The notes below the pieces were generated by a model. That model was not told the origin of the DNA. It saw nothing but the letters and a program-made list of their open reading frames with translations, and made no database searches. From assembly GCA_051872655.1 (NCBI GenBank), contig JBJEEB010000033.1:18177-82176 (forward strand): DNA of 64,000 nt, written 5' to 3'. Made by a program: the position numbers and the translations under genes. This document shows, in pieces, positions 40,406-63,746 of the stretch. How positions within the stretch are numbered: position 1 is the first letter of the stretch; every line of letters starts with the position of its first letter. This DNA comes from Bacilli bacterium (GTDB lineage Bacteria; Bacillota_I; Bacilli_A; RF39; UBA660).

Positions 40406-40440
40406 ATTATACCTCACTTATATTTAGTATAACACAAAAT

Positions 40441-41319: not shown

Positions 41320-41954
41320 TATTGCTCCTTGGTATTTTTCTTATAGTACTTACATATATTTTTTAGCTTACATGTACTACATTCTGGCCCTCTACTTTTA
41401 CACTTATACCTACCAAAATGAACTAATTGATGATGAGTTTTACTCCATCTACTCTTTGGTATTTTCTTCATAAGTTTTTGTTCTACTTCGAGAACTGTAT
41501 CATTTTCCTTAGCTAGTCCAAGACGCTTACTTACTCTATTTACATGAGTATCTACGGCGATAGATGGTTCATTAAATATAACTGATAAGAAAACATTTAT
41601 AGTTTTTCTACCTACTCCTGGAAGGGTACTTAAATAATCTCTATCATTTGGTATTACTTTTATATTATCACTAATTAATTTAGTAGCTATTTCTTTAATA
41701 AAAATAGCTTTCTTTTTATATGTTCCTATTGGTTTAATAATTTTTTCAATATCATTAATGTTTGCTTTAGATAAATCTTCTATAGTAGGATATTCTTTAA
41801 ATAATATTTTATTTACAGAGTTTACTCTCTTATCAGTAGTTTGTGCACTCATTACAATAGCTATTAATAATTCATAATCTTTAGTGTACTCGAGTTCACA
41901 TTTGGGATTTGGATATAATTCATCTAAGTATTCTATAATAGTATTAATCATCAT
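41319..41954 (-). CDS. nth: endonuclease III
   Basis: HhH-GPD (LPGVGRKTINV...VDTHV) and a C-terminal 4Fe-4S cluster (CKSRGPECSTCKLKNIC). Confidence 0.9.
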   Translation of the reverse strand: MMINTIIEYLDELYPNPKCELEYTKDYELLIAIVMSAQTTDKRVNSVNKILFKEYPTIEDLSKANINDIEKIIKPIGTYKKKAIFIKEIATKLISDNIKVIPNDRDYLSTLPGVGRKTINVFLSVIFNEPSIAVDTHVNRVSKRLGLAKENDTVLEVEQKLMKKIPKSRWSKTHHQLVHFGRYKCKSRGPECSTCKLKNICKYYKKNTKEQ

Positions 41955-49134: not shown

Positions 49135-49185
49135 TTTAGACCTCCACATAATATTTTAAATTATTTATTTTACACTTAATACAAT

Positions 49186-49235
49186 AAAAAGCACAAGAGA
49201 TAACTATTCCATAAATGAATAGTGACTCCGTGCTT
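49186..49235 (-). terminator. intrinsic terminator inside the leader of the nucleotidase-phosphorylase gene
   Basis: Minus-strand AAGCACGGAGUCACUAUUC-AUUUAUG-GAAUAGUUAUCUCUUGUGCUU followed by UUUAUU. Confidence 0.55.
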
Positions 49236-49295
49236 ATTACTATAAACTCGTGTAGGTAATTTCACCCGAGATAGCTTTATATATCTCCTCACTTG
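49236..49295 (-). promoter_or_regulatory. structured 5' leader segment (candidate attenuator or riboswitch aptamer, class unknown)
   Basis: GGAGAUA...UAUCUC, UAUAAA...UUUAUA and CUCG-GGUGAAAUUACC-...-CGAG pairings are mutually exclusive. GGAGAUA can also pair with the terminator 3' arm. Confidence 0.3.
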
Positions 49296-49300
49296 CCTTA

Positions 49301-49329
49301 ATTTTATAATTTATTTTATATTTTGTCAA
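49301..49329 (-). promoter_or_regulatory. sigma-A type promoter
   Basis: Minus-strand TTGACA-17 nt-TAAAAT. Confidence 0.5.
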
Positions 49330-49486
49330 CACATTTTTTTGATATTTTTCATCAATAATATTAAAGTATAAAAATAAGTATTCTATTTCAAATAATGGCT
49401 CTTTATCAAAGTTATTGTCTAACAACACTATTTGACAAAGAACCAAAATTATTTACATACTCTATGATATTTTAACATGTTTTTAA

Positions 49487-51670
49487 TTACTTTCTAACTA
49501 AAGTTTTTGGCTTACTAATAGATTTTTTATTTGAAAATACTGGACATAATACTTTGTCATATAAAACATCTAATTCGTGCAATGCTCTAGTTTCAGCAAC
49601 ATATAAAAGGTGCATATCATCCATATTATTTTCATCATACACATTGCTTGAAGCATCATTTATTAAAACTGCATCAAATTCTAAACCTTTGGACAATGCA
49701 CTTGTTAATACAAATACACCACCGTTATACTCTACATCACTGGATTTTATATTGGTAATATCAATTCCATATTTACTTAAAGAATTATAAGTTTTCTCTG
49801 CTTCTTTATCGGTTTTACAAATAACTGCTACCGTTTTGTATCCTTTATCTAACCATTCTTTTATTTTGCCAATTTTATAATCATCAATTTTAGCAAAATC
49901 TTCAAATGATATTTCACCACCATGTCTTATTACCGGTTCAGCCTCATTCAAATTCATTTGTCTTAAAATCTTATTTGCATTATTTGTAATTTCAATAGTT
50001 GTTCTATAACTTTTATTTAAATTTAAAATTGAACAGTCATCATTAAATATTTCTGATGCTACACTTTCCCAATCTTTTATACCCCTGTAAGAATATATGG
50101 ATTGTGCTAAATCACCATATATTGAAAACGTACTATTTGGAAAGGTTTCTTTAAGCACATCAAAATGAAACAAGCCATAATCTTGAGCTTCATCTATTAC
50201 TATATGATTATATTGTTGATTACATCCACAAAGTAGATTGTTTATATGTAATAATGATGGAAGATCTTCAAAAGTAACTTTTCCTCTCTTTAATGTTTGT
50301 AATGTACTTTTTTGAAGTTTTAAAAGTTCAATGTCACTTAATTCGTTCGTATATTGCCCTAAATTGGCCACAAATAATTTATAAATATTTAATGGCCCTA
50401 ATTGTAATTTTTTAAAATAATTTCTAAGTAATTTAACTCCATCTTTTTTTACTAAACTATCTAATGCTGTACTTTTTGAAACTGCTTCTTTTCTAATAGG
50501 ATCATCTTTTGACAAACCACTTGTATATATTTGCCTGTATTTTTGATTTAAATTGCTATATATTTCATCAATATTATTTTTAAATTTTTCGACAAAATAT
50601 CTACAAGCACTATCAAAATTTGGATAAGATTTGATACCTGAAAATAGTATTTTTTTTATTTCATCTGCACTATATATTTCTTCACCATCAATTTTAAATC
50701 CTTCTAATACAATACCATTTGATAAATAATCACTCATAAAGCAATCAATTATTTTTTTATAATCAAGCGAAGTTTTAAATGCTTGTATTTTTTTATACTC
50801 TTCTTGTTCCTTATTTTGATTAAATATTGTATTTTGAGTATCTAATGTTAATTTTTCATTTGTAAGACTATTTATTAAATCGATATAAGTTTGTTGCTCA
50901 ACTGGTTCAGTCTCCAATTCTGGTAAAATAGATGATATATAATTTAAGAAGTATCGATTTGGGCCTATTACTAAAAATTGACTTGAATTTATTTTCTTCT
51001 CTAAATTAAATACTAAATATGCAATTCTATGTAAAGCTACAGAAGTTTTTCCAGAACCAGCCACACCTTGTACTATAATATTTTCTGAAATAGGTCTTCT
51101 AATTATTTCATTTTGTTCTTTTTGTATTGATGCTATAATTGTTTTCATCTTATTATCCGCATTAACATTTAAATATGGTTGTAATAACTCATCATTGCTT
51201 ACTAAACTTGTATCTAATACATCTACTAGTCTACCATCTTCAATAATAATTTGGCGTTTTAGTTTTAAATCTCCATGTACTAATCCAGATGGTGCCTCAT
51301 AACTAACTCTACCTAAACCACTATCGTAATATAAACTACATATTGGAGTTCTCCAATCTGTTGTTACATTTTCATTATTCTTACCATGAATTGTTGTTTT
51401 TCCAATATATATTTTTGCTACATTATTACTACCATCAGAAAGAAAGTCAATTCTACCAAAATATGGTTTCTTTTCCGACAATTCTAACTTTCTAAGTTGA
51501 GTTGCTTGAGTTGACATTAAGCCTTCAACTAAGAAAGTATCTCCTTGCAATACATTAGTGTATCTTTTAGGAATCTCATGCATTTCTTTTTTGCAATATT
51601 CTTTTTCCTCTTCTAGACTTTCTTTTACATATTTTAAATATTCTTTTTCTTCATTAAAAATATTTCCCAT
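49487..51670 (-). CDS. helD: UvrD-like helicase, HelD (helicase IV / RNAP recycling) family
   Basis: N-terminal KKPYFGRIDF block, Walker A GVAGSGKTSVALHR and UvrD-type motifs (VIDEAQD, YRTT). Strong purine-rich RBS (AGGGGGAAAAG). Confidence 0.8.
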   Translation of the reverse strand: MGNIFNEEKEYLKYVKESLEEEKEYCKKEMHEIPKRYTNVLQGDTFLVEGLMSTQATQLRKLELSEKKPYFGRIDFLSDGSNNVAKIYIGKTTIHGKNNENVTTDWRTPICSLYYDSGLGRVSYEAPSGLVHGDLKLKRQIIIEDGRLVDVLDTSLVSNDELLQPYLNVNADNKMKTIIASIQKEQNEIIRRPISENIIVQGVAGSGKTSVALHRIAYLVFNLEKKINSSQFLVIGPNRYFLNYISSILPELETEPVEQQTYIDLINSLTNEKLTLDTQNTIFNQNKEQEEYKKIQAFKTSLDYKKIIDCFMSDYLSNGIVLEGFKIDGEEIYSADEIKKILFSGIKSYPNFDSACRYFVEKFKNNIDEIYSNLNQKYRQIYTSGLSKDDPIRKEAVSKSTALDSLVKKDGVKLLRNYFKKLQLGPLNIYKLFVANLGQYTNELSDIELLKLQKSTLQTLKRGKVTFEDLPSLLHINNLLCGCNQQYNHIVIDEAQDYGLFHFDVLKETFPNSTFSIYGDLAQSIYSYRGIKDWESVASEIFNDDCSILNLNKSYRTTIEITNNANKILRQMNLNEAEPVIRHGGEISFEDFAKIDDYKIGKIKEWLDKGYKTVAVICKTDKEAEKTYNSLSKYGIDITNIKSSDVEYNGGVFVLTSALSKGLEFDAVLINDASSNVYDENNMDDMHLLYVAETRALHELDVLYDKVLCPVFSNKKSISKPKTLVRK

Positions 51671-51695
51671 TTTTCTTTTCCCCCTAACCTAATAA

Positions 51696-52721
51696 CTAAT
51701 TGTTATTCAACAATTCTTCCATTAAAACATTAGTTATTTTTTCTGCATTTTCAAATAAATATTTACATAAACTTGTTCTGAAAAATGCAAAATCCAATAA
51801 GCTTGTTTTAGAATTATCAGCTATATATTGTTTATATCCAAATGTACTTCCAAGAAGTTGAACTAAATATAAATATGACATAAATTTGAAATCATACTTA
51901 TTTAACTCTATATAGTTAGTAAATCTTTTTACATATTGAACTAAATTATCAATATCAATTTTTCCTTTTTTTGCTTTTGGATCTATATAACTATAAGATC
52001 TTATTACTTCCCACACAATTGGCATTTTACATGCTGACACAAAATCAATTATTGCATTTATCTTGCCATCTTTATACATAAACTGTAACACACTATAATC
52101 ACCATGGGTATTCATAACAGTTAATTTATCCATATCTCTGAAATCTAAATTATCCCTTACATATTCTAACATAAAAATTTTATCCGTTAAATCTCTATAT
52201 ATCTGTGGATAAGTATCTGCAGATACTTTTTGTAATAATTTCTGTTGTTTTTCTATACTTTCATTAATTGTTTCTTTTGAATACCAACTTGATACATCAT
52301 TACTAGGTAATTCAATTTTTAATGTCTCAAGACTCTTAATAATCTTACCTAAATATTCAGCAGACTCTAAAATTTGATCATAATTACCAGTATTTGATTC
52401 CATTGTATAACCATCAATAAACTTTTGCATTATCACAATTCTATTTTCATATACAAAACTATATTCACCAGATATTGTTTTTACATACTCTGGGACTGGA
52501 ATATCATCTTCTTTTAAGTGATTGATTATAATTATTTCTTTATCAATCTCTTCCTTTGTATATTTTGTTTGAAATTCTTTAAATATATATTTATTTGCAT
52601 TCAAAGAATATAAATTGGCACTACCACGATTTAATTTTTCAACTTGATAAACATCAATGTTATAAATATTTTTTACTACCTCTATTATTTTTTCATTTGT
52701 AAAAACAGTTTCTTCAATCAC
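51696..52721 (-). CDS. APH / choline-kinase / CotS-like phosphotransferase family protein
   Basis: Protein-kinase-like fold markers HGDYSVLQFMY (catalytic loop) and AIIDFVS (DFG-like). 341 aa. Confidence 0.6.
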   Translation of the reverse strand: MIEETVFTNEKIIEVVKNIYNIDVYQVEKLNRGSANLYSLNANKYIFKEFQTKYTKEEIDKEIIIINHLKEDDIPVPEYVKTISGEYSFVYENRIVIMQKFIDGYTMESNTGNYDQILESAEYLGKIIKSLETLKIELPSNDVSSWYSKETINESIEKQQKLLQKVSADTYPQIYRDLTDKIFMLEYVRDNLDFRDMDKLTVMNTHGDYSVLQFMYKDGKINAIIDFVSACKMPIVWEVIRSYSYIDPKAKKGKIDIDNLVQYVKRFTNYIELNKYDFKFMSYLYLVQLLGSTFGYKQYIADNSKTSLLDFAFFRTSLCKYLFENAEKITNVLMEELLNNN

Positions 52722-53491
52722 TTCAATACCTCCTTTATCTTTCTTATGATATTTTCTGGATCTCCTCTAACATTATAAAATGGTATATTAACTTTTGATA
52801 ACCATTTATATACTTTTATTCTATCAATATTTAACATAATTGGTTTTGTAAACAATGGTATATCTGAATGCCATGTACAAAATTTAAACATTTTTTTAAT
52901 TATATGGTCTTTATTATTTACTAAATCAAAACTCAACTTCCCTTCATCACAAATCCCAACTATATTTATAATAAGCTTAATTTCTATTTCAGAATTGTTA
53001 CTTTTTAAAATTAGTTCATTATTTGTATCAATCTTCATATATTGTGAACCCCGTTTTAACATTATTTTATTTTTTATATAATACAAATGAGTTTGATCTG
53101 CCGACACTACCTCCATATTATTTTTTAATGCTTTTAGACATAAAGTTGTCTTACCAGAATTGAAATCTCCAACCACCAAAATACCTGTATTATTATACCA
53201 CAAAACTGCCGAATGTAAAAGTATATTGGACTCGTTTAATATTGTATTTGCAAGTGCATTATAAAATAAGGGATATAAATCCGTATGTTTTATCACTCCA
53301 TTAATACTTTTATCAACTCCATCTATATTCCATATTATTTTATTTTTATAAATTTTAATGTAAAAATCATATTTACTTGATAATATAACATTATAAACAC
53401 TCAACCATTTTTCTATTTGTTTACAATATCCTTCAACTTCACAATAAACATACAATTTCCTTTTGTTTATGACATAAGTACAATTTATCAT
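52718..53491 (-). CDS. HprK-C-terminal-like P-loop protein, paralogue 2
   Basis: LHSAVLWYNNTGILVVGDFNSGKTTLCLKALKNNMEVVSADQ. Start set at the ATG overlapping the upstream stop (ATGA). Confidence 0.5.
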   Translation of the reverse strand: MINCTYVINKRKLYVYCEVEGYCKQIEKWLSVYNVILSSKYDFYIKIYKNKIIWNIDGVDKSINGVIKHTDLYPLFYNALANTILNESNILLHSAVLWYNNTGILVVGDFNSGKTTLCLKALKNNMEVVSADQTHLYYIKNKIMLKRGSQYMKIDTNNELILKSNNSEIEIKLIINIVGICDEGKLSFDLVNNKDHIIKKMFKFCTWHSDIPLFTKPIMLNIDRIKVYKWLSKVNIPFYNVRGDPENIIRKIKEVLK

Positions 53492-54207
53492 CTTTTCATT
53501 CCTCTTTTCAAAGTGTGCTGTAAACATTCCGCACAAGAATAAAAAGTTTCAAATTTAGGAAGATAGTCCAAATCTTTATTGTTATCAAAGCAACTTCCAA
53601 CAATAAATCCATTGTATCTTTTTATCATATCCAAATCATTTGGACCATCACCTATAGTATATATTTCTTCATCTGATAAATTCAATTCATTTTTAACAAT
53701 TTCTATTGTTTTTATCTTATTTGATAATGTAAAAATATGAATAGCATATTTGTTATTACCTTCTGTACAATAATCAACATTTGGAGAGGACAAAAGCATA
53801 TTTACTACTTGTCGCCTGACTTTTTGTTCCTCAACTAAATGAATTAAATATTCAGTAGGATTATTGGGTGTTAAGATACCATATTCATCTAATGGATCTA
53901 TTCCAAGTATTTGATCATAAAATGGTTTTAAATCAATTATTATTTTTGAATCAATATTTGTTTTAAAAATAATTTTAAAATCTCCATCAAATAGAATATT
54001 ACCATTTGCGCATGACATATAATTGAACGGAACATCAAATTTATCAATTTCTTCTCTTATGGATTTATATAATCTTCCTGTAGAAATCATAATTTTAGTT
54101 TCATCATTAAGAAAGAATTTTAACATGTCTGTGTTCTTCTTCATATTTTCTATACTATCATCTTTTTTCAATGTTCCATCGTAATCAGAAACAATTAAGG
54201 CACTCAT
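53488..54207 (-). CDS. HAD-superfamily (Cof/IIB-like) phosphatase
   Basis: Motif I VSDYDGTL and motif IV GDGPNDLDM. Start at the ATG preceded by GAGGTG. Confidence 0.7.
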   Translation of the reverse strand: MSALIVSDYDGTLKKDDSIENMKKNTDMLKFFLNDETKIMISTGRLYKSIREEIDKFDVPFNYMSCANGNILFDGDFKIIFKTNIDSKIIIDLKPFYDQILGIDPLDEYGILTPNNPTEYLIHLVEEQKVRRQVVNMLLSSPNVDYCTEGNNKYAIHIFTLSNKIKTIEIVKNELNLSDEEIYTIGDGPNDLDMIKRYNGFIVGSCFDNNKDLDYLPKFETFYSCAECLQHTLKRGMKR

Positions 54208-54226
54208 AGATATCACCTCACTTACA

Positions 54227-55015
54227 TCAATATTTAAATATTTCAATAAAATTTGATTTTTGTTTTTTTATTTCATTTAACTTTTCTTCTGAAAAAGTAT
54301 ATTCATTTATAAAATCTTTTAAAAATTTTTTATTTTTATTAATTTTTAAAATTTTTTCAAACATATATTGTCTGTTTTTGCTATCTATTCCGTTTAACTC
54401 GTGTCCACCTACTACAACTAAATTTTTACGATTAATTGTTAATGGAGATATTAAGTATTTATCATCTCTAGCAGTGCTTAAAATAATAATCATACTATTG
54501 AAATTAGCATAGTCAAATATATTTTTTAAAACTGAGGAATCTCCTGTAGTATCAATATAAGTATTATATTGATAGCTATGATTTAATTCAGAAATTATAT
54601 TTATATCAACGTTATATTGTAACTTTATTAATTTTAATAAATTTAAAATTTTATCATTTTTACTTCTAACATAAATAGAAATATTTTTAAATTTATTATC
54701 CAATAAATACATTAAGCAACTTAATCCAATATTTCCTAATCCTAATATTAAAATATTATCATTAATCCTGTATTTGATTCTTTCAAAAGTTAAAGCTGTT
54801 ATTAATTGAAATCTAGAAAAAACAATATTCTCTATATCATAACAAGATTTAGCTGTTAAATAGCCCGTATTTAAAATTGCCTCTTTTACATTGTGATCAA
54901 CATTTAAAATATATCTATTTGAATCATATATTTTACTAATGGCCATATACCCACAATTATTATATTTTTCAGTACCGCGACTTACTATGCTATACTCTAT
55001 AGATACTTTTTGCAT
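54227..55015 (-). CDS. MDR-like NAD(P)-binding dehydrogenase (short N-terminal domain)
   Basis: Rossmann motif ILILGLGNIGLSC in a 262-aa protein. No zinc-ligand Cys/His pattern seen. Confidence 0.4.
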   Translation of the reverse strand: MQKVSIEYSIVSRGTEKYNNCGYMAISKIYDSNRYILNVDHNVKEAILNTGYLTAKSCYDIENIVFSRFQLITALTFERIKYRINDNILILGLGNIGLSCLMYLLDNKFKNISIYVRSKNDKILNLLKLIKLQYNVDINIISELNHSYQYNTYIDTTGDSSVLKNIFDYANFNSMIIILSTARDDKYLISPLTINRKNLVVVGGHELNGIDSKNRQYMFEKILKINKNKKFLKDFINEYTFSEEKLNEIKKQKSNFIEIFKY

Positions 55016-55017
55016 TT

Positions 55018-55989
55018 CTATTTCCTCCTCAAATAATATTTTAATATATTCCCCTCCAATTTATTAGCATTAACTTCTCTAGAAAATGTTTCATATTTGA
55101 ATAGTGGATATAAGTTATTAATTTTTAAATAATCTCCAAAAGAAAAATTTTTATCTTTTCCATACATATCTAATTTAAGCATAATATCTTTAAATGAAAT
55201 ATTTAAAGTTTCCAAAAAAATATTTTCTTTACTTAAATTAACAAAGTTAACAGTTGATATAGGAGCATGCCAAACCCATTCTGTTTCAAATAAATTAACA
55301 AATTCTGAAATATCAAATCTAATTTTATTGCTTTCATATTTTGATGTCTTGGTTGCAATCTCTAAATTTATTTTTTCACTTTTTAATTGATAGAACAAAT
55401 CTTTATCAAATGTGATATCATATGGCAATCCAAAAGCATACCATTTATCATTTTTTTTACCAACAAATGTTATATCGTTTGATATTGGATAAGCATTATC
55501 TAAGAGAACAGAAGTTAATAATGCTGTAGATTTTCCACTATTTTTTTTACCAAAAAATAGTATAGCTTCATCATTTTTCATTATACAGGAGGCATGAATA
55601 GGAAAGAATTTTTTCTCTAACAATTTTCTAATTAGCAATTCAGTTATTAGTCTAATCAGAATTTTACTATCATAATCATCTCGACAGAGTATATCTATTT
55701 TATTTTTTTCTCTTATTATTATGTTTTCACATGAATATTTTTGTCTAGGAGAATAAGAAATAATTTTTTCACCAACTTGATTAACAATATACATTGCATT
55801 CCGAAAAGGATAAACCTTTATTCCTTCACTCATTTCAGGAAAAGAAACAAAATTTTTATAATAAATTTCAAAATCATAATAACTGCTTTTCTTTGCATTA
55901 ACAAATCTTTTTGATATATCCATTAATGTCTCTTGCGGTGCATGAATTTTTAAATTTATTAAATCACCTATATTGATAACATTTGTCAT
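55018..55989 (-). CDS. HprK-C-terminal-like P-loop protein, paralogue 1
   Basis: IHASCIMKNDEAILFFGKKNSGKSTALLTSVLLDNAYPISNDITFV. Confidence 0.5.
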   Translation of the reverse strand: MTNVINIGDLINLKIHAPQETLMDISKRFVNAKKSSYYDFEIYYKNFVSFPEMSEGIKVYPFRNAMYIVNQVGEKIISYSPRQKYSCENIIIREKNKIDILCRDDYDSKILIRLITELLIRKLLEKKFFPIHASCIMKNDEAILFFGKKNSGKSTALLTSVLLDNAYPISNDITFVGKKNDKWYAFGLPYDITFDKDLFYQLKSEKINLEIATKTSKYESNKIRFDISEFVNLFETEWVWHAPISTVNFVNLSKENIFLETLNISFKDIMLKLDMYGKDKNFSFGDYLKINNLYPLFKYETFSREVNANKLEGNILKYYLRRK

Positions 55990-56000
55990 GGCTTAAACAC

Positions 56001-56993
56001 CTACCTATTCTTATTTTTTCTTTCTAATAAATTATTACAATATAAATTCATAACATTAGAAAATGAACTTATATTGATAATATTAGGATTTAATGTTCCT
56101 TTATTAAAGTATGAATAAGTAGCATCAATGAAATAAGTAAAATTATCATCTTCTTTTATAACTTCATTATATATAATTTTGCCATTATAATATACACTCA
56201 TATTCGCAGGTTTTATTAATTTTAATTCATTTGAGTATATTGCGTAGTTTCCTTCTATTGTATAACCGTCTTTCGTACAAATAATAATTCTTTTTTGTAC
56301 AATAATTGATGTCAGATTACTTTCATATATAATATTTATATCGTTGTACTTTGATATTATCAACCCATATCCATGATTTTCTAACGACACATTATCTATT
56401 TTTAAGTCTCGCGAGCAAGTAATATTGTTATAAATATTACTAGGATTATTTAAGAAATATTGTGTTAAATATATTTGATGTGGAATTTCAATTTCATAAT
56501 TTAATGTTACATCTTTACTATAGCCTCTACCAGCTAAACTTTCTGAAATCCTGTTTTTAGAAAAATTAGTATATATCAAATCTACTTCTTTATTATTTTC
56601 ATCTAAATATTTTTTTATAATTCGTGTGAGTTTGGAAAACAAATAGTTTTCAACCATTACTATATTCATATTATTTAATTCTGTTGCTTTTTGTTCATCT
56701 ATTACAAAAGGTTTTTCAACTAATATATCTTTTATTCCTAATTTTTTGCAATTCTTTATGATTGTCAAAAATTCACTTTTTGGTGTGCATATATCTACTA
56801 TAAAATTATTGATTTTTAAATCATTAGATTTTATACATTCTTGTATAGTAGAATATATCCTATTGTTTGAAATATAATTACTATGATTTTTTATATCTAC
56901 AAAAAATATTTTTCCTTTTTGCTTTAATTTATTATAAGAATTATAGTGAAGTAAAGCAGCTTTTCCAGTACCAACTATTATAATATCTTTCAT
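56001..56993 (-). CDS. Gfo/Idh/MocA-family oxidoreductase
   Basis: N-terminal Rossmann IIIVGTGKAALLHY and a conserved EKP motif (ILVEKPF). Confidence 0.65.
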   Translation of the reverse strand: MKDIIIVGTGKAALLHYNSYNKLKQKGKIFFVDIKNHSNYISNNRIYSTIQECIKSNDLKINNFIVDICTPKSEFLTIIKNCKKLGIKDILVEKPFVIDEQKATELNNMNIVMVENYLFSKLTRIIKKYLDENNKEVDLIYTNFSKNRISESLAGRGYSKDVTLNYEIEIPHQIYLTQYFLNNPSNIYNNITCSRDLKIDNVSLENHGYGLIISKYNDINIIYESNLTSIIVQKRIIICTKDGYTIEGNYAIYSNELKLIKPANMSVYYNGKIIYNEVIKEDDNFTYFIDATYSYFNKGTLNPNIINISSFSNVMNLYCNNLLERKNKNR

Positions 56994-57002
56994 TTTTTCC
57001 TC

Positions 57003-58016
57003 CTAAAAAGAAACTTTTTTAATATCTGAGACTTTTTCTTTAGTAATAAAATATTTTTCTCTAAATATTTTTTTATAAATTTTTATACCATTTTTAGGGC
57101 CCAAAATATTAATAGAATATTTTAATTTTTTATTATATTCTAAAATATTCTTTATCATGTTTCTATTTTTTTTATACCAATCAAGTATAAGTTTTTTTTC
57201 TTCTGGCAGTTCAAAATTGTTTAATTCCCCTAAAACATTTCTTATACAACGAGTTAAAGAAAAATATATATACTTTTTTTTATTAGTACAGTTTAAACTC
57301 CAGTTATAAGTTCTTTCAATAATTGATGTCAAATTCATTATATATGTGATATCCTTACTATCAGTAATTGAACCTTTTCTTTTTCTATAAACATATACAT
57401 ACTCATTTAGAAAGTTTAAACATTTAGAATAGTAGATAACTTTAGGAACCCATTCTTCATCCTCATATACCAAATTTTCTGGAAATATAATAGAATTATT
57501 TTTAAGCATATCTCTTTTATAAATAAATCTCCATGGCCTAGCACATATTTTATTATTAATTAAATCTTCCTCAGATAAATTTTGCCCATTTTGTAAAGAA
57601 AATTTTTCTATTTCAAAATAATTTTTATTATCAAAATATTTGATTGTGTTAAACAAAGTTAAATCATAATCATTTGCCCTCAAATAATTTATTATTTTAA
57701 TTATGGCATCTTCCATTATATAATCATCGCCATCTATAAACATAATATAGGTTCCTTTTGCTTTTTCCAATCCAAAATTTCTTGAATTTGATATACCAGA
57801 GTGATTAATAGCATAGTATGAGCAATTTGATAAATTGTGAATTTCCTTTTCAATTATTTCGAAAGTGTTATCAGTTGAATGGTCATCAACGACTATTAAT
57901 TCTGATTCCGGAGATAACTGATTTTTTATACTTTCTAAACATTGTTTCATATAATTTTCACAATTATATGTGTTAACAATAATACTTAATAATACATTTT
58001 TCATCTCTATCATCAT
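57003..58016 (-). CDS. family 2 glycosyltransferase
   Basis: LSIIVNTYNCENYMKQCLESI, VVDDHSTDNT and FIDGDD (DXD). The true start may be MKNVLLS at 58004. Confidence 0.8.
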   Translation of the reverse strand: MMIEMKNVLLSIIVNTYNCENYMKQCLESIKNQLSPESELIVVDDHSTDNTFEIIEKEIHNLSNCSYYAINHSGISNSRNFGLEKAKGTYIMFIDGDDYIMEDAIIKIINYLRANDYDLTLFNTIKYFDNKNYFEIEKFSLQNGQNLSEEDLINNKICARPWRFIYKRDMLKNNSIIFPENLVYEDEEWVPKVIYYSKCLNFLNEYVYVYRKRKGSITDSKDITYIMNLTSIIERTYNWSLNCTNKKKYIYFSLTRCIRNVLGELNNFELPEEKKLILDWYKKNRNMIKNILEYNKKLKYSINILGPKNGIKIYKKIFREKYFITKEKVSDIKKVSF

Positions 58017-58023
58017 CTAACAT

Positions 58024-59040
58024 TTAAAATAATTTATTACAACCATTTACAAATTTACTAACAGTTTCTTTCCAACTATAGTTATATTTCTGTTCAATAT
58101 AAACTTTGGTGTATACTAATGACTTTGCCTTTAACATAGCATTGTATAAACCATTTTCAGAATCAAAATTATATGTTATCAATTGCTCCTTACAAATTAA
58201 TTCTTCAATTATGTCACTTTTTGGTGAAATGCATTTGATTCCTGTTTTAGCAATATTTATATAGTTTGAAGGGAAAAAACCATATTTAAATGCTGGAAAC
58301 TTTAAATCATAAATACTTATAAAAACATCTGTAATCTTTGATAATTCTTTCCAATCATTTTTATCAATAAAACTATCTATGTGTATTATATTTTCTTTAT
58401 TACCTATTAAATGTTCAATATTTACATTGGCATTTTTGGGTTCTCTTCCAGCGATAATTAAACGACAATTATCCATTTTTTCAAACGATTCTATTACTTG
58501 ATCAATCATTTTATATTTATATATATTACCTATAAAGGTAAATGTAAAATTTTTACTTTTTTTAATTTCTTTCACTTTAGGATTTACATAATTATTATTT
58601 AATTTGTTTATTCCAATACCATGATTTATTGCATCAATACCAAAATATCTCTTTATGCTTTTTTTCATATATTCGGATACTGTAAATACTAAATCACACC
58701 TTTTTATGAATTCATTTGTTACACATTCATCTATATAACTTAATTCTCTATCTATTGGAAAAAAATTATGAAGCGTCCAAACTATTTTCCATCCTTTTTG
58801 TTTCAAACAATCAATATTGCTTAAAAATTTATTAGCAGTTTCAGCATTATTATAAAATCTTTTTAATCTATTAAAATAAATTATGCCTTTATTTACTTTT
58901 TCTTCTAAAGGTAATTCTGGATTTATAACATATTCATAATTTTCATAAGCATTTAACTCTGAGCAAAAATTATAAAAATATGGACTAGGGTGATCTATTC
59001 CAGCATGTAATATCCAAATCTTTATCTTGTCTTTTCCCAT
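58024..59040 (-). CDS. GT-B fold (GT1/GT4-like) glycosyltransferase
   Basis: Two-Rossmann layout with a C-terminal FTFIGNIYKYK...LIIAGR...SNYINIAKTGIKCISP region. No strict EX7E motif seen. Confidence 0.5.
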   Translation of the reverse strand: MGKDKIKIWILHAGIDHPSPYFYNFCSELNAYENYEYVINPELPLEEKVNKGIIYFNRLKRFYNNAETANKFLSNIDCLKQKGWKIVWTLHNFFPIDRELSYIDECVTNEFIKRCDLVFTVSEYMKKSIKRYFGIDAINHGIGINKLNNNYVNPKVKEIKKSKNFTFTFIGNIYKYKMIDQVIESFEKMDNCRLIIAGREPKNANVNIEHLIGNKENIIHIDSFIDKNDWKELSKITDVFISIYDLKFPAFKYGFFPSNYINIAKTGIKCISPKSDIIEELICKEQLITYNFDSENGLYNAMLKAKSLVYTKVYIEQKYNYSWKETVSKFVNGCNKLF

Positions 59041-59705
59041 TTTTCGACCTTTACCTTTACCTCTTCAATCATATATCCTATATCTTCAAATTTATGAGCA
59101 TCTGATGAATAAACATAGTTTACATTATTTTTTTTCATCATTTCCAACATATAATAAAGCTGTTTATCATCCCATCTTGACCTATCACTTGTATTTATTT
59201 CTATCAAAATTTTCTTTTTATTACATATAGTTAAAATTTTTTCAAATAAATTATCATACATATTGTATTGATCTGTTTTTTTTATGTGTGCTATTACATT
59301 TATCTCATAATTATTTATCATATCAATTATTGCTTCTAAATATTTTCCGTAATTATCAAATTTTATACTATGAATAGCCCCAACAATCCAATCAAATTTT
59401 CCATAATTTAAGATATCAAATGTTTCATTTCTGAATTCCAAATTATTTGAATAATCTATTTCAATACCTTTTAATATTTCTATCTTATTAGCCAAATTGC
59501 TTAATCTAAATTCAGAAATTTTTTTATCTAATTGGTTTATTGCATCTTTTGTAGAAAGAGCTGGTTTATGCTTAATAGAAATTCTATTACCATGGTCTAA
59601 GAAAACAGCCTTTTTTATACCGCAGTCAATACATTTTTTTACATACATATCAAATAATTTTTGATTGTATAGAGCTTCTTTTAAATGAATGTGCATATCT
59701 TCCAT
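59022..59705 (-). CDS. PHP-domain (histidinol-phosphatase-like) phosphoesterase
   Basis: MHIHLKE, FLDHG, AIHS, AHIK and SSDAH metal-ligand pattern. Confidence 0.65.
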   Translation of the reverse strand: MEDMHIHLKEALYNQKLFDMYVKKCIDCGIKKAVFLDHGNRISIKHKPALSTKDAINQLDKKISEFRLSNLANKIEILKGIEIDYSNNLEFRNETFDILNYGKFDWIVGAIHSIKFDNYGKYLEAIIDMINNYEINVIAHIKKTDQYNMYDNLFEKILTICNKKKILIEINTSDRSRWDDKQLYYMLEMMKKNNVNYVYSSDAHKFEDIGYMIEEVKVKVEKWEKTR

Positions 59706-59707
59706 AT

Positions 59708-60640
59708 TTAATATTTTCTCCTTTTTAGTTCTGCCTCAAAAGAACTTGGCCATAAACATCCTTTGCAATTTTCGACATCTTTTTCTCTTTCTAAATAAAA
59801 TTCATCTAATCTCTCTTTTAAGTTGAAAATTGTAAATTCTTTATTTACATTACCAATTTTATCGCAACAACATACAAGTTTTCCATCGGAATCAATCCTT
59901 AATTCTGATAAACCATTGCATTTCCAATCTAAATTTTTGATATGCTTTTTTGAATTTTCTAAAAATTCTATAGAATTTTTAATTTTAAAACCATAATTTT
60001 TCATATCTATAATTTTATCTATTGTATCTATATAATTTCTTATATCTTCATTTGTTATGAAAGCAAATTTTTCATTATTCTTTCTATGATCAAATGTTCC
60101 CTCATTTCCCCAGTGAAATGGTAAAATATAAGTGTTAACACCTTTTTCATTCATATGTTTTATTAAATCTATTACTGAATTTACATTTTTCTTATTTAAA
60201 ACAGTATAATTTGTTATGTTAGGATTATCATAATTGCAATTTAGATATTCAATTAAATTCAAACCATTCTTTGCCTTCAATGGACTAATAGAATTTTTAA
60301 GATCTAAATTATCAATACTGACTCCTAATGAACTTAATCCATTTTCAAATAATTGTCTTACCAAGTCAAAATTGCCAAAAGCATTAGTAGTTAAATTACA
60401 AGTTAGTTTTGCTTGTTTTGATATATACTCAACAAGTTCAATTATATTTGGATATAAAGTGGGTTCACCACCTAATATAACTATTTCTCTAGCCCCCAAA
60501 TCTTTAATAATATCTACTGCCTTTTTCCATTCGCTTAAAGTTAAATCCTTACGCACAGTATTTTGAATATTGCAATACATACATTTCATATTACATTGTC
60601 TTGTTAATCTAATTCCAGCATTCACTATTTTATTATCCAT
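59708..60640 (-). CDS. radical SAM protein with SPASM/twitch-like C-terminal Cys cluster
   Basis: CNMKCMYC CX3CX2C motif. C-terminal WKCNG...LVCCCDKIG...CKGCLWP. GGAGGA RBS. Confidence 0.75.
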   Translation of the reverse strand: MDNKIVNAGIRLTRQCNMKCMYCNIQNTVRKDLTLSEWKKAVDIIKDLGAREIVILGGEPTLYPNIIELVEYISKQAKLTCNLTTNAFGNFDLVRQLFENGLSSLGVSIDNLDLKNSISPLKAKNGLNLIEYLNCNYDNPNITNYTVLNKKNVNSVIDLIKHMNEKGVNTYILPFHWGNEGTFDHRKNNEKFAFITNEDIRNYIDTIDKIIDMKNYGFKIKNSIEFLENSKKHIKNLDWKCNGLSELRIDSDGKLVCCCDKIGNVNKEFTIFNLKERLDEFYLEREKDVENCKGCLWPSSFEAELKRRKY

Positions 60641-60659
60641 TATTATTTCCTCCTAATGA

Positions 60660-61715
60660 CTAATATTTAATATTTGAATTAAATTTATCAGTTGTATCAA
60701 TACAAGATTTAAAATCATAAATAGAAGTTTCTTTGTTTACATTAATATTATTAAAATTGTATTTTTTAATAATATCCCATTCAGTAGCAATTATAATGAT
60801 TTCACATCCAGATATACATTGACTTATATCATCATAGTATTTTACTTTATCACCATAAATTTTTTTATATGAATTAACTCCCTTTGGATCATATACATTA
60901 ATTTTAGCTTTATTTTTTAGTAATTTTTTTGTTAAATATATAGAACAAGAATTTCTAATATCACCAGTATTAGCTTTAAAAGTAACTCCTAAAATAGCAA
61001 CTTTTATATTTTTTAATTTTGAAAAATCATGTTTTATAACATTAAAACATTTTTTTAATTGTAAATTGTTTATTTCTATAGTTGATTTAACTAATTACAA
61101 TGTTGAATTTTTAGACTCTGAAAATTTTAATATTGCATTAGTATCCTTCGGTAAACAAGATCCTCCATAGCCAATGCCATATTTGAAATACTTTTCTCCA
61201 ATTCTTTCATCATATTTAACTCCATTAATTACATTTCCAATATTTACACCAATAGAATTACATAAATTGCTTATCTCATTAATAAATGATATTCTCATTG
61301 CTAAATATGAATTTGCGACAAATTTAACCATTTCGGCATCTTTTGTATTCATTGCTATTATAGGAATTTCTACATTATAATATTTTTCGAATCTTTTATA
61401 CAAACTTAGAATTCTTTTCATTGATTTTTCGTTATCTGATCCTATGACAATTCTTTTAGCCCCTATAAAATCATCTATAGCAGTTTCCTGTGATAGAAAT
61501 TCAGGATTATGAACTACAGAAAAGTTTGTTTTTTTACTAATAAAATCACAAGTCCCTGGTAGAACTGTAGAGCGAATGCATATAGTTGTTAATTTATCAT
61601 GTTTAACATACTTTTTTATAGTTTGTACAGAATTCATAATTTCTGAAACATCTAAATAGTTTTTAGAATTTAAAGGTGTTCCCACACATACAAAAAGGTG
61701 TTCCCACACATACAA
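60660..61715 (-). pseudogene. ugd: UDP-glucose/GDP-mannose 6-dehydrogenase relic, 5'-truncated with an in-frame TAA
   Basis: Starts inside the FVCVGTP block, so no N-terminal Rossmann domain. GGSCLPKDT present. TAA at 61095-61097, then in frame ...KVAILGVTFKANTGDIRNS... to TAG at 60660. Confidence 0.75.
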
Positions 61716-61718
61716 AAA
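61675..61718. repeat. perfect 22-bp tandem duplication at the 5' break of the ugd relic
   Basis: ggtgttcccacacatacaaaaa occurs twice back to back. It encodes the FVCVGTP block, and the upstream copy falls out of frame. Confidence 0.9.
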
Positions 61719-61758
61719 AGCGGAGTACGAAAAACAGATGTCTGCTCATTCGTCTCCC
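61714..61758 (-). terminator. intrinsic terminator in the leader of the tailoring operon
   Basis: Minus-strand GGGAGACGAAUGAGCAGA-CAUC-UGUUUUUCGUACUCCGC followed by UUUUUU. Confidence 0.55.
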
Positions 61759-61817
61759 ATAAAGATTTCAATAATATATAGCTTCGCTTCGAGCAAACAA
61801 CTCAAGACTTGTTTGAT

Positions 61818-61846
61818 ATTATATGATAATAATTTATAAAAGTCAA
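61818..61846 (-). promoter_or_regulatory. consensus sigma-A promoter
   Basis: Minus-strand TTGACT-17 nt-TATAAT. Confidence 0.6.
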
Positions 61847-61929
61847 TACTTCTAGTAGAATGATAGTATAAAAATGTACAGAAAAGAATTTTTCTCTTGA
61901 AATTCACACTTTTTTGATATTTTTTACCA

Positions 61930-61974
61930 AAATATTAAAATCGAAAATAAGTATTCTATTTCAAATACTTATTT
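61930..61974 (-). terminator. terminator of the hybrid kinase gene
   Basis: AAATAAGTATT-N8-AATACTTATTT hairpin spanning the stop codon, followed on the minus strand by UCGAUUUUAAUAUUUU. Confidence 0.5.
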
Positions 61975-63746
61975 ATCTTTTCTATTAAATCATCTTTATC
62001 TATTGGTTTTAGTATATAGTCAGTAAATCCACTCTCTTTATATTCTTCTGTATATGGTATACTTTTATTTTTAGTAAGTAATATAACTGGGGTACTAAAG
62101 TTCTTGATATTTTTTAATTTTTTCATTACTACTTCTCCACTTATGTATGGCATTTCTTCATCTAAGAGAATTAAATTATATTTAGATCCTTTTCTTATTT
62201 TATCTAATGCTATCTTACCAGTACTTTCAGTATCTATATTAATATTACATTTACTTAATATTTTAGTAATTATTTTTATACTAGAAGGATTATCATCTAC
62301 TATTAATATTTTTTTATCATCTAAATAATTATTATATTTATCTTCTTCTTTAGATGTATCTATTTTTTGATCTAATATTATGGTAACAATAGTACCTTTA
62401 TTATATTCACTACTTATAAGTAGATTACCTCCGAGTAAATTAATTATTTTTCTTGCTCCATATAAGCTATCTTCTTTATCAGGATGTTTATTAATACATT
62501 TATCTATGTCTTCAGCTTTTATTCCAATACCAGAGTCTTCTATTTTGATTATTAATCTTGCTATATCATGTTTGAATATAGTATTTACAGATAATTCTAC
62601 AAATCCTTTTTCTGTATATTTATATGAATTATCTAGTATAGTATTTAAAACATGTTTTAGATTTATATTATCTCCATATAAACTATCAGGAAGATTACTA
62701 TCTATATTGAATCTAAAACTTATATTTTTATCACTAAATTTAGTTTTATTTTTAGTTACTATCTCTTTTAGTAATAATTTAATGTTGTATTTAGTTTTTA
62801 CTGTCCTTATATTAATATTATCTAACATATCTATATTATATATATCATTAGCCATACTATATAACTTATTATTAGAAGATATTATTTCTCTAGCAAAGAA
62901 TCTATTTTCTTCAATGTTATTACTACTTAGTATTATCTCTGATGATTTATTTATATCACTAGCAATACTTTTTATATCACTCATCATATTATATATAAGC
63001 ATACTTTTTTCTTCATTAGCAGAGTCTGCTAATTTCTTAGAAGTATGTATTTCTTCGAGTAATTTTTTATCTGGGTTTTCTATGGTAAAATACATTATTA
63101 CAGTAATGAATGTTTCCATTGAAGTGGATAACAATAATTCTGGTATTGCTTTTTGAATAATCGTAATTAGTGTACCAGATAATAAATATATATAAATAGG
63201 AAGATATTTTTTACTTTTAATATTCCTAAAGTTTTTTATTAAACACATAGACATAAGAATTATTGATATGAAACTTGCTATGTAAACTATATTGGTGGCT
63301 TTTCCATAAGAGTAAATTACGTATCCATATTCATTATACTTAAACTCTACTGGTAAAACTATTATTAACAAAGCTATTATTATATCAAGTATTAAATACA
63401 TATTTATTATTTTTTTCATATATTTCTTTAAATTATTTTTTTCTTCATTTGAAGATATTAAAAATACATATATGCCAAATATTGAACACCATACTATTAA
63501 ATATATTAAATACAATTTATTTAATATCGTATAAAATTGTAAATGACTACTTGCATATCCCGCAAAAATGGTACAAAATATTTCAAGTGCTATTCCAATA
63601 AAATTAATTATTATTATTTTAGAATACACTCTATTTTCTGGTGTTTTTATCTTATCTTTAGAAAAATATGCTATCATTAAAAGAATACTATAAAATAAAC
63701 TGGCTAACGTAAAAAATATTGTACTATTGATTTTCACACTAAACAC
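61956..63746 (-). CDS. polytopic hybrid histidine-kinase-like protein with C-terminal receiver domain (H-box His replaced)
   Basis: About 7 TM segments; HATPase N-box ILDNSYKYT and G1 EDSGIGI. REC domain (ILIVDDN...LILLDEEMP...LLTKN...ILKP). H-box position reads NMMSDIKS. Confidence 0.7.
   Translation of the reverse strand: MFSVKINSTIFFTLASLFYSILLMIAYFSKDKIKTPENRVYSKIIIINFIGIALEIFCTIFAGYASSHLQFYTILNKLYLIYLIVWCSIFGIYVFLISSNEEKNNLKKYMKKIINMYLILDIIIALLIIVLPVEFKYNEYGYVIYSYGKATNIVYIASFISIILMSMCLIKNFRNIKSKKYLPIYIYLLSGTLITIIQKAIPELLLSTSMETFITVIMYFTIENPDKKLLEEIHTSKKLADSANEEKSMLIYNMMSDIKSIASDINKSSEIILSSNNIEENRFFAREIISSNNKLYSMANDIYNIDMLDNINIRTVKTKYNIKLLLKEIVTKNKTKFSDKNISFRFNIDSNLPDSLYGDNINLKHVLNTILDNSYKYTEKGFVELSVNTIFKHDIARLIIKIEDSGIGIKAEDIDKCINKHPDKEDSLYGARKIINLLGGNLLISSEYNKGTIVTIILDQKIDTSKEEDKYNNYLDDKKILIVDDNPSSIKIITKILSKCNINIDTESTGKIALDKIRKGSKYNLILLDEEMPYISGEVVMKKLKNIKNFSTPVILLTKNKSIPYTEEYKESGFTDYILKPIDKDDLIEKINKYLK

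Follow-up and report, generated by a model that had tools for sequence, protein, structure and literature searches.

The DNA analyzed here (64,000 nt, ~24% G+C; hereafter the window) comes from a Bacilli bacterium and carries, on its minus strand, a tightly packed operon of ten intact genes at positions 51696-60640. The operon encodes a radical S-adenosylmethionine (SAM) enzyme, two phosphatase-type enzymes of the PHP and HAD families, two glycosyltransferases (GT4 and GT2), a Gfo/Idh/MocA-type oxidoreductase, a compact dehydrogenase of the MDR superfamily, two P-loop proteins (A and B) of the phosphoenolpyruvate carboxykinase (PEPCK)/HprK fold, and an APH-fold phosphotransferase. From the protein families and from related loci, we propose with middling confidence that these enzymes form a cytoplasmic small-molecule pathway on a carbohydrate-type substrate, which would be phosphorylated and then glycosylated. 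A narrower version, in which the substrate is specifically a nucleoside or nucleotide, is rather doubtful. The full picture is proposed only tentatively: an undescribed pathway to a glucuronosylated, transiently phosphorylated metabolite derived from a nucleoside or sugar, which would be widespread in an uncultured gut lineage of the Bacilli, with a new role for a kinase family, an interchangeable radical SAM enzyme and S-adenosylhomocysteine hydrolase (SAHH)-like/TIM-barrel pair, and a new leader RNA. We favor the small-molecule reading because every enzyme of the set is soluble, the operon is coupled to a nucleotide-sugar dehydrogenase, two Leloir-type glycosyltransferases are encoded, the enzymes that replace each other among loci have relatives that activate a ribose or hexose carbon, and genes of nucleotide metabolism recur nearby.

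Distribution of the gene set was analyzed in metagenome collections and genome assemblies. It recurs in ~18 distinct metagenome or metagenome-assembled genome (MAG) loci of low-GC Bacilli (designated by L numbers below), and at least eight independent loci have the same genes in the same order, so the arrangement is not due to chance. A scan of species-representative genomes identified seven loci, all in uncultured MAGs and from gut-type habitats. Source names for the P-loop protein A, MDR-like, and radical SAM families were few and were generic or MAG labels; one orthologue was indexed in ~294 blocks of the metagenome collection. The loci fell into three groups. Those of the window type (L002/L008, L005, L006, L007, L009, L013, L017/L018, and GCA_016648615.1) encode UDP-glucose/GDP-mannose dehydrogenase (UGDH), the radical SAM enzyme, PHP, GT4, in some cases GT2, Gfo, P-loop protein A, MDR, HAD, P-loop protein B, and APH, usually followed by HelD. 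Two loci are compact. The smallest form, L015 (1-5025, plus strand), has an adenosine deaminase gene cut by the contig end, a NUDIX gene that overlaps the radical SAM gene, and genes for P-loop protein A, APH, and MDR, and has the clearest nucleoside flavor among the loci; L139 encodes APH, GT4, MDR, P-loop protein B, and the radical SAM enzyme, with NT5C alongside. NUDIX genes were found near the cluster in L012, L013, L015, and L017.

The third group (L004, L010, L011, L012, L014, and L016) has no radical SAM gene and instead encodes a SAHH-like protein and a TIM barrel of the AP_endonuc_2 family. The radical SAM and SAHH-like enzymes were mutually exclusive, occurring together in no locus compared. 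In L016 (7753-9993, plus strand), a xylose-isomerase-like TIM barrel and a SAHH-like NAD domain are fused in one 746-aa protein, which suggests that the SAHH-like and TIM-barrel proteins act together in loci that lack the radical SAM enzyme. All 49 PDB matches of the SAHH-like protein were adenosylhomocysteinases or S-inosyl-homocysteine hydrolase (best E 1e-12). A DUF1749 hydrolase is encoded beside the pair in L004, L012, and L014. A fatty acyl-AMP ligase and a hexapeptide acetyltransferase are further encoded in L004 and L014, together with an additional GT2; the same probably holds for L010 and L011. Based on gene content across the variant loci, the invariant core consists of APH and the MDR-like protein, which no related locus lacks, one or more PEPCK/HprK-fold proteins, and, as alternatives, the radical SAM enzyme or the SAHH-like/TIM-barrel pair.

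An earlier reading of the window from its letters alone (the sequence-only reading) had listed no flippase, polymerase, ATP-binding cassette (ABC) exporter, priming transferase, aminotransferase, nucleotidyltransferase, or precursor-peptide open reading frame (ORF). This is true of the operon, and the absence from the operon core extends to the related loci: flippases, polymerases, and priming transferases were lacking from all of those examined, as were conserved short ORFs, and no aminotransferase or nucleotidyltransferase was found in the core across them. The exceptions are GCA_016648615.1, in which an ABC exporter and a GT2 are encoded upstream of a LysR gene, and L012, with MraY and FtsW genes upstream. 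Homologous gene sets did not lie within capsule or teichoic acid loci having a flippase and a priming transferase, in agreement with the earlier view that this is neither a Wzx/Wzy or ABC capsule locus nor a teichoic acid locus. The view that it is not a 2-deoxystreptamine cluster was also borne out, and extends to streptomycin-type aminocyclitol clusters, as the ten proteins and the variant loci yielded neither a carbocycle synthase (DOIS/MIPS type) nor an aminotransferase. Profile and structure searches did not reassign the proteins to any single characterized pathway. The cluster follows genes for a penicillin-binding protein (PBP), MraY, and FtsW in L012 (MraY and FtsW belonging to the dcw cluster), and in several related genomes the operon is vertically conserved beside housekeeping genes (HelD, tRNA synthetases).

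The operon in fact comprises eleven genes, of which the first, encoding UGDH, is a pseudogene in this window. By tblastn it aligns with the intact L005 protein at 84% identity over residues 76-423. A 5' deletion has removed its ~75 first codons, and the edge of the deletion is marked by 20 nt that are directly duplicated (61672-61691 and 61694-61713). At 61095-61097, TAA stands in place of a conserved Lys codon (STL*LVKS here vs STLKLVKS in relatives). The remaining ten operon genes are intact despite this decay. An intact UGDH gene (429-455 aa) overlaps the radical SAM start in L002, L005, L006, L009, and L017 and stands ahead of the radical SAM gene in L013; it is located after HelD in L007 and was not seen in the GCA_016648615.1 locus. 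The sequence-only reading of ten genes was right for the intact ORFs, whose coordinates agree exactly with the ORF list (Table 1), but missed the decayed UGDH gene, the promoter and leader, and the HelD gene 25 nt downstream.

All operon junctions, each of which was re-read, are overlaps or gaps of at most 19 nt. The gaps measure 2 nt (radical SAM/PHP), 7 nt (GT4/GT2), 9 nt (GT2/Gfo), 11 nt (Gfo/P-loop protein A), 2 nt (P-loop protein A/MDR-like), and 19 nt (MDR-like/HAD, given the HAD ATG at 54207). Overlaps already reported from the sequence are present between PHP and GT4 (19 nt, 59022-59040), HAD and P-loop protein B (ATGA, 53488-53491), and P-loop protein B and APH (GTGA, 52718-52721). 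Shine-Dalgarno sequences of the GGAGG type precede most of the starts. The HAD start at 54207, also the earlier choice, is preferred to that of the longer ORF because orthologue alignments start at residues 14-17 of the latter and an independent Logan gene call gives 239 aa. As had been stated, no transmembrane helix was detected in the ten proteins (19-residue windows); the most hydrophobic segment, with a Kyte-Doolittle mean of 1.8, is a Rossmann GxGxxG strand.

Table 1. The operon, its control region, and the adjoining HelD gene, in order of transcription
Feature	Position	Strand	Evidence
Sigma-A-type promoter, TTGACT-17 nt-TATAAT	61818..61846	-	11/12 match to consensus
Conserved 5' leader, ~100 nt	61714..61806	-	Five-sequence alignment, RNAalifold
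UGDH pseudogene	60660..61715	-	tblastn with intact L005 UGDH
Radical SAM enzyme, 310 aa, MoaA/viperin-like core	59708..60640	-	Pfam Radical_SAM 1.8e-18
PHP-family phosphoesterase (HisJ-like), 227 aa	59022..59705	-	Pfam PHP 9e-10
GT-B glycosyltransferase (GT4/GT1 type), 338 aa	58024..59040	-	Pfam Glycos_transf_1 6e-8, Glyco_transf_4 1e-6
GT2 glycosyltransferase, 337 aa	57003..58016	-	Pfam Glycos_transf_2 1.5e-31
Gfo/Idh/MocA-type NAD(P) oxidoreductase, 330 aa	56001..56993	-	Pfam GFO_IDH_MocA E 6e-4
PEPCK/HprK-fold P-loop protein A (Pfam ScmC-type), 323 aa, putative kinase	55018..55989	-	Motifs, AlphaFold2 (AF2), Foldseek
Compact MDR-superfamily dehydrogenase/reductase, 262 aa	54227..55015	-	AF2 and Foldseek
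HAD-IIB (Cof-type) phosphatase, 239 aa from ATG at 54207	53488..54207	-	Pfam Hydrolase_3 5.5e-19
PEPCK/HprK-fold P-loop protein B, 257 aa from ATG at 53491	52718..53491	-	NCBIfam HprK_rel_B E 5e-4
APH-fold (aminoglycoside/homoserine-kinase-type) phosphotransferase, 341 aa	51696..52721	-	Pfam APH 1.6e-11
HelD (RNA-polymerase recycling helicase)	49487..51670	-	NCBI name of exact protein, Pfam UvrD domains

Domain calls from Pfam and NCBIfam were firm for the radical SAM, PHP, GT1/GT4, GT2, HAD-IIB, and APH proteins. Those for Gfo/Idh/MocA, the MDR-like protein, and P-loop proteins A and B were weak by sequence and were supported by motifs or structure. Together these checks agree with the family assignments of the sequence-only reading.

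The radical SAM enzyme is nearest, among characterized proteins, to MoaA and the viperins, which act on nucleoside triphosphates. Its best NCBIfam match was archaeal MoaA (TIGR02668, 1.2e-23; 83.5 bits vs a cut-off of 325.25), and it scored 74.4 bits against the other MoaA model, TIGR02666 (cut-off 284); the best PDB match of the family profile was also MoaA (3e-19). Matches to viperins (about 1e-12 overall) were obtained with two PADLOC pVip models (8e-16 and 3e-12) and the NCBIfam prokaryotic viperin model viperin_w_prok (7.6e-13; 48.3 bits vs a cut-off of 180), and were confined to the shared radical SAM core. The CxxxCxYC motif lies at residues 16-23, with C16, C20, and C23 invariant, and a GGEP motif is present. 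Toward the C-terminus, the invariant cysteines are C241, C258, C292, and C295; C257 and C259 come close to invariance. Cysteine spacing differs from that of MoaA, and the profile alignment to MoaA ends at about residue 190; a cysteine-containing hairpin, CxxLSELRIDSDGKLVCCC, resembles the MoaA/twitch motif. The SPASM-like cysteine cluster of the sequence-only reading did not hold up: Pfam SPASM was not matched at E <= 0.01, in a search in which an unrelated radical SAM protein of the window (40504-41319) matched it at 5.5e-12, and the C-terminal cysteines appear to form a partial, twitch-like set. Neither a RiPP recognition element (RRE) or PqqD domain on the enzyme (RiPP, a peptide made on the ribosome and modified after translation) nor a PqqD gene among the operon proteins was found, and with the cysteine motif beginning at residue 16, an N-terminal RRE could not be accommodated. 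Pfam gave no B12-binding domain on this protein. The family comprises ~90 clusters, none from a named species, and identity falls sharply outside it. No moaC or other molybdenum cofactor gene occurred in any related locus examined. The most distant homologue (33% identity; L140, 1-20473) lies in a different cluster, with four further radical SAM enzymes (two with B12 domains), an aminotransferase, AMP-binding enzymes, a Gfo-like protein, and ABC exporters.

A P-loop kinase domain of the PEPCK/HprK fold was found in both P-loop proteins, by Foldseek for A and by profile for B. In P-loop protein A, the motifs H132-A-S134 and G147xKxxGKS154 are invariant. Its AF2 model (pLDDT 90) best matched ATP-dependent PEPCK (E 6e-8, ~370 columns, query-normalized TM-score [TMq] 0.43-0.48), followed by the HprK/P C-domain (E 1.6e-5). 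The target-normalized TM-score to PEPCK was just 0.29-0.33, with 323 aa here vs ~530 aa for full-length PEPCK. The window protein has no Pfam PEPCK match; its L015 orthologue matched PEPCK_ATP at 3.7e-6 (26.4 bits vs a cut-off of 26.5). Judging by the model, protein A resembles PEPCK, a small-molecule kinase, over its full length more than it does HprK. Its family has 43 clusters within 5.8 billion proteins, none from a named species. Pfam ScmC (PF27840) gave faint precomputed matches on some P-loop protein orthologues, and the curated ScmC score of the P-loop proteins (17-19 bits) was far from the cut-off of 125. P-loop protein B has invariant HS and GxFxxGKT motifs, scored 19.3 bits against HprK_rel_B (cut-off 200), and by profile found an HPr(Ser) kinase (3tqf) at E 8e-4. 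Proteins A and B align to each other by hhalign (probability 71%, E 4e-5) and are distant paralogues. For the APH-fold protein, the NCBIfam matches at E <= 0.01 were homoserine kinase (the best, at 1e-10, far under its cut-off), APH(3'), and PRK06148 models alone. At that threshold, and in a library presumed to include spore-coat kinase models, no CotS/YutH/YsxE-type family was matched; a PDB sequence search gave no matches.

The two phosphatase-type proteins are supported to different degrees. The HAD protein scored 51 bits against HAD-SF-IIB, above the cut-off of 41.8; this generic superfamily model is the only one whose curated NCBIfam cut-off was passed within the operon. The PHP protein matched hisJ_fam at 6e-18, under its cut-off, and its sole PDB match was histidinol phosphatase 4gc3 (E 0.006); in L012 a second PHP protein replaces HAD. 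GT4 is encoded in all related loci but L015 and had no PDB sequence match. GT2 is optional, being missing from L002, L009, L013, and L017 and located at the opposite cluster end in L004, L010-L012, L014, and L016. Nine orthologues of the Gfo protein keep its GxGxxA Rossmann motif and its EKP motif without change, and its best and single weak Gfo-family match in the PDB, by profile, was 3hnp (E 0.002). The MDR-like protein has invariant GxGxxG and GGHE motifs and belongs to a family of 113 clusters, none from a named species. Its profile found only noise among PDB sequences; its AF2 model (pLDDT 91) gave Foldseek matches, at TMq 0.66-0.75, to AcuI/YhdH, glucose dehydrogenase, galactitol-1-P dehydrogenase, TarJ, and idonate dehydrogenase, neighbors that include sugar and sugar-phosphate dehydrogenases. 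Some MDR-like homologues (P0125 and P0140) carry an N-terminal PHP or PHP_C fragment, which may be a true fusion or a run-on gene call on short contigs.

The operon is preceded by a near-consensus promoter that is among the three best matches (11/12) within 49000-62100; both hexamers and their position are kept in L005, L006, L046, and L002. The promoter/leader region is common to L001, L002, L005, L006, and L046. RNAalifold on five aligned leaders predicted 23 pairs, three with compensatory changes, including a small hairpin, P1, at 61787-61806; a long hairpin at 61714-61758, followed by a T-run, is of the terminator type. As read from the sequence, the P1 3' arm (GCTC) could instead pair with GAGC of the terminator 5' arm. 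Rfam gave no credible match, either for the whole window at gathering thresholds or for the leader at permissive E-values, and nhmmer located the leader solely in front of this operon. A metagenome scan with the leader pattern returned ~120 loci, nearly all chance matches; L046 alone was confirmed by nhmmer as new, and since it again precedes the same operon, the leader yields no regulon clue. It is a candidate attenuator or riboswitch-like element and may be a new regulatory RNA.

For the proposed pathway, the following order of steps can be envisaged. The APH-fold enzyme and one or two ATP-dependent kinases of the PEPCK/HprK fold would phosphorylate a carbohydrate-type substrate, at best guess a nucleoside, nucleotide, or sugar phosphate at its ribose or hexuronate moiety. 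The committed step would then fall to the radical SAM enzyme, acting on the phosphorylated sugar by hydrogen abstraction leading to dehydration or rearrangement; in the variant loci, the NAD-dependent SAHH-like enzyme, fused to or paired with the TIM barrel, would take its place. A resulting keto or ene intermediate would be reduced or oxidized by the compact MDR and Gfo/Idh/MocA enzymes, and the activating phosphates would be stripped by PHP and HAD-IIB, or in the minimal loci perhaps by NUDIX or NT5C. GT4, with GT2 where present, would attach sugars, the donor in relatives probably being UDP-glucuronate from the operon's own UGDH. Expression would proceed from the sigma-A-type promoter through the leader with its terminator hairpin. 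Among the three suggestions of the sequence-only reading, this develops the first, a phosphorylated glycoside or cyclitol-type small molecule. The small molecule is the best supported of the three; the cyclitol is set behind a nucleoside, sugar phosphate, or hexuronate because of the UGDH coupling, the kinship with MoaA and viperins, the SAHH-like replacement, and the NUDIX, NT5C, and adenosine deaminase neighbors.

Several points weigh against this pathway. An NCBIfam scan of the ten proteins reached no curated equivalog cut-off for a named pathway, so we infer every step; stepwise phospho- and glyco-tailoring of a cytoplasmic substrate, as first suggested, fits the families and loci as a general idea, and the same caution applies to substrate, order, and product. 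Similarity to BlsE, the radical SAM enzyme of blasticidin S biosynthesis, is weak (E 6e-8) and covers the N-terminal 100 residues only. Three of the residues that contact GTP in MoaA, which we take to be R17, K69, R71, and N124, align to G, V, and G in the radical SAM profile (R17, R71, and N124, respectively), and the set is not evidently conserved. APH-fold and PEPCK-fold enzymes are atypical as nucleotide kinases. NUDIX, NT5C, adenosine deaminase, and PNP genes are individually common and lie clearly within the operon only in L015. UGDH is dead in the window, which means that UDP-glucuronate must come from another source or be dispensable. The lack of a linked exporter is unusual for a secreted product and equally fits an intracellular metabolite or a surface-glycan precursor.

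That last possibility leads to the alternative of an unusual activated sugar or soluble glycan precursor for a wall or spore-surface (crust or exosporium) glycoconjugate, with membrane steps and export encoded elsewhere, which we consider unlikely but worth keeping in view. The window encodes SpoIIP (5099-6103, minus strand) and a collagen-triple-helix-repeat protein (31109-32362, plus strand, opposite to most window genes), both as reported earlier, from which the host probably sporulates. UGDH, GT4, GT2, and APH-fold proteins are enzyme classes of Bacillus subtilis spore-crust loci; vertical conservation beside housekeeping genes is more in line with a structural role than with a secondary metabolite of sporadic occurrence; an exporter is not linked; and the L012 cluster follows PBP, MraY, and FtsW. 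However, no locus has an adjacent flippase, polymerase, priming transferase, or LCP-type ligase, and the minimal loci L015 and L139 have at most one glycosyltransferase. Known crust and teichoic acid pathways do not include a radical SAM enzyme, three kinases, or a phosphatase pair as found here. The spore-glycan suggestion of the sequence-only reading is kept for its sporulation-related genes but weakened by the APH protein, which has no CotS/YutH/YsxE-type NCBIfam match, and by the conserved near-consensus sigma-A promoter, which is not obviously of the mother-cell type.

The second earlier suggestion, modification of a peptide or protein, would have HprK-like kinases phosphorylating Ser/Thr, glycosyltransferases glycosylating, and the radical SAM enzyme cross-linking a RiPP-like substrate. 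Lasso-peptide precursors are known substrates of HPr-kinase homologues, and phospho-glycosylation is found in pseudomycoidin (PMC8498205, PMC6993621). HprK_rel_B and ScmC, whose definition comes from peptide-maturation cassettes, are weakly matched by both P-loop proteins, and additional cysteines lie toward the C-terminus of the radical SAM enzyme. The scores of these matches are 17-19 bits vs cut-offs of 125-200, however, and the protein A model fits PEPCK better and over more length than HprK. No conserved short ORF lies in or beside the operon (internal gaps are at most 19 nt, and flanks vary among loci), and neither RRE/PqqD nor a lasso cyclase, protease, peptidase, or exporter was found; SPASM is unmatched, and the coupled UGDH and the SAHH-like replacement indicate sugar or nucleoside chemistry. 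We regard this explanation as improbable. About as improbable, or slightly more so, is the catabolism or salvage of a host- or diet-derived glycoside, glucuronide, or nucleoside after import, with processing by the kinases, dehydrogenases, TIM-barrel isomerase, and phosphatases. Gut-type habitats and a regulated leader would suit it, and sets of kinase, Gfo/Idh/MocA, xylose-isomerase-like TIM barrel, and phosphatase typify inositol and sugar-acid catabolism. But two Leloir-type glycosyltransferases and UGDH are anabolic, no locus has a linked transporter, glycoside hydrolase, or catabolic-type regulator, and variant loci add the tailoring enzymes fatty acyl-AMP ligase and acetyltransferase. 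Most improbable is a viperin-like anti-phage system in which the radical SAM enzyme makes a chain-terminating nucleotide analogue and the kinases supply the triphosphate. The PADLOC and NCBIfam viperin matches described above speak for it, one of the pVip models being defined for kinase-associated viperins. These matches span the shared core only, though, and MoaA outscores viperin; the other nine proteins have no PADLOC match, the synteny is with housekeeping genes (HelD, tRNA synthetases) and not a defense island, and known viperin systems have no use for glycosyltransferases, UGDH, or a pair of oxidoreductases.

Downstream of the operon, HelD begins 25 nt beyond the APH gene with no terminator detected between them, and it is probably co-transcribed with the operon. 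It follows the operon in loci of the ten-gene type and not in GCA_016648615.1, L004, L012, L014, or L016; HelD was rejected as a pathway member since it is missing from these more distant loci. The window's HelD and threonyl-tRNA synthetase are identical to NCBI proteins MGM9876505.1 and MGM9876502.1, respectively. Just beyond HelD, two genes from the operon, is an unusual 442-aa fusion of an NT5C-type 5'-nucleotidase and a PNP_UDP_1 nucleoside phosphorylase (47821-49149, minus strand). Directly upstream of the operon promoter, a hybrid sensor kinase/response regulator with a multi-transmembrane N-terminus is encoded (61956-63746, minus strand), in which Pfam HATPase_c and Response_reg are present and a HisKA domain was not found; L002 has a related kinase ~4 kb upstream of the operon.

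The radical SAM protein with the clear SPASM match (271 aa, minus strand) lies between an asparagine synthetase (asnB-like) gene (38597-40417) and nth (41319-41954). The asnB-like and radical SAM/SPASM genes were rejected as lasso or RiPP partners because they lie 11 kb off among housekeeping genes and are not syntenic with the operon elsewhere, and because the asnB-like protein has the Met-Cys-Gly motif expected at a glutamine amidotransferase N-terminus, four residues inside the listed ORF. Elsewhere in the window are a 562-aa ORF without a Pfam match (8358-10046, minus strand) and a 793-aa VWA and MucBP protein (17435-19816, minus strand), a likely surface adhesin in keeping with a gut habitat.

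If the operon does make a new nucleoside- or hexuronate-derived metabolite in these common uncultured gut Bacilli, it would add a class of microbiome small molecule and give a first function to the compact MDR family and to that of the ScmC/PEPCK-like P-loop proteins, both seen almost solely in metagenomes. Use of PEPCK/HprK-fold 'ScmC-type' proteins as small-molecule kinases would be a new function for that family, and the leader would sense a pathway product or precursor as a new cis-regulatory RNA. The either/or occurrence of the radical SAM enzyme and the SAHH-like/TIM-barrel pair is a testable case of non-orthologous replacement, and it limits the chemistry to a reaction within reach of either enzyme type, the activation of a position adjacent to a sugar hydroxyl. 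The minimal loci of four to five genes are a tractable entry for biochemistry. In the literature found, the enzyme superfamilies and this kind of tailoring operon are known, and the combination, the four-enzyme core, the replacement, and the leader, as we predict them, appear not to have been described: a search for ScmC, HprK-related, and PEPCK-like proteins gave only unrelated uses of 'SCMC', and a search by enzyme class gave aminoglycoside and RiPP papers and no matching cluster.

Among known systems, HprK/P, the HprK-related kinases of lasso clusters, and ScmC (PF27840, TIGR04249) have a Walker-A motif, an upstream H-x-S, and a nucleotide-binding-domain fold in common with the P-loop proteins. 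The latter differ in scoring below the curated cut-offs, in the better alignment of protein A with ATP-dependent PEPCK, and in the lack of a lasso or SCM cassette or other peptide-maturation partners at any locus. Spore-crust and coat glycosylation loci of B. subtilis (cotS-cotSA, ytcA-C, sps, and cge) share the UGDH, GT4, GT2, and APH-fold classes, and the host here has sporulation genes. They differ in the CotS-type match, absent from this operon, and in the promoter, which here looks sigma-A type; the radical SAM, PHP, HAD, MDR, and Gfo proteins and the P-loop pair have no counterpart in them.

MoaA (GTP 3',8-cyclase) and viperin (NTP dehydratase) are of similar size to the radical SAM enzyme and are its closest characterized relatives by sequence, and viperins are often paired with kinases. 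In contrast, the operon enzyme scores far under their cut-offs (83.5 vs 325 and 48 vs 180 bits), constitutes a separate family of ~90 clusters, does not evidently keep the presumed GTP-contact residues of MoaA, and has no moaC, moaB, or moaE neighbors.

Natural-product nucleosides offer parallels in logic. To build the herbicidin core, a SAHH-like enzyme works together with two oxidoreductases and a radical SAM enzyme (PMC6794829). The enzyme classes of herbicidin and aureonuclemycin assembly recur here: the SAHH-like enzyme in the variant loci, the radical SAM enzyme, and both oxidoreductases, of NAD(P) type. The herbicidin pathway also uses a UDP-glucuronate-derived sugar. Unlike in herbicidin, the radical SAM and SAHH-like enzymes are alternatives in this operon family, and the radical SAM protein has 310 aa and no Pfam B12-binding domain vs 435 aa for HcdE (PMC6794829). 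Blasticidin S biosynthesis proceeds by way of UDP-glucuronate, after which the radical SAM enzyme BlsE acts on the glucuronide (PMC3715490). In blasticidin S, mildiomycin, and arginomycin, a UDP-glucuronate-using transferase is followed by BlsE or MilG, and in relatives UGDH is translationally coupled to the radical SAM enzyme and shares the operon with a glycosyltransferase; the operon's radical SAM enzyme, of ~310 aa and bearing CxxxCxYC and GGEP motifs, is a further point in common with these hexuronic-acid nucleoside pathways. The differences are that the profile matches BlsE (PDB 7vob) over ~100 residues and more weakly than it matches MoaA, SkfB, SuiB, and viperins; that by annotation the operon has no CMP hydrolase, aminotransferase, aminomutase, or ATP-grasp ligase; that its three kinases and two phosphatases have no counterpart there; and that the host is a low-GC gut member of the Bacilli vs Streptomyces. 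The blasticidin and herbicidin precedents are best taken as analogies of logic and not of homology, with herbicidin likened by enzyme class alone.

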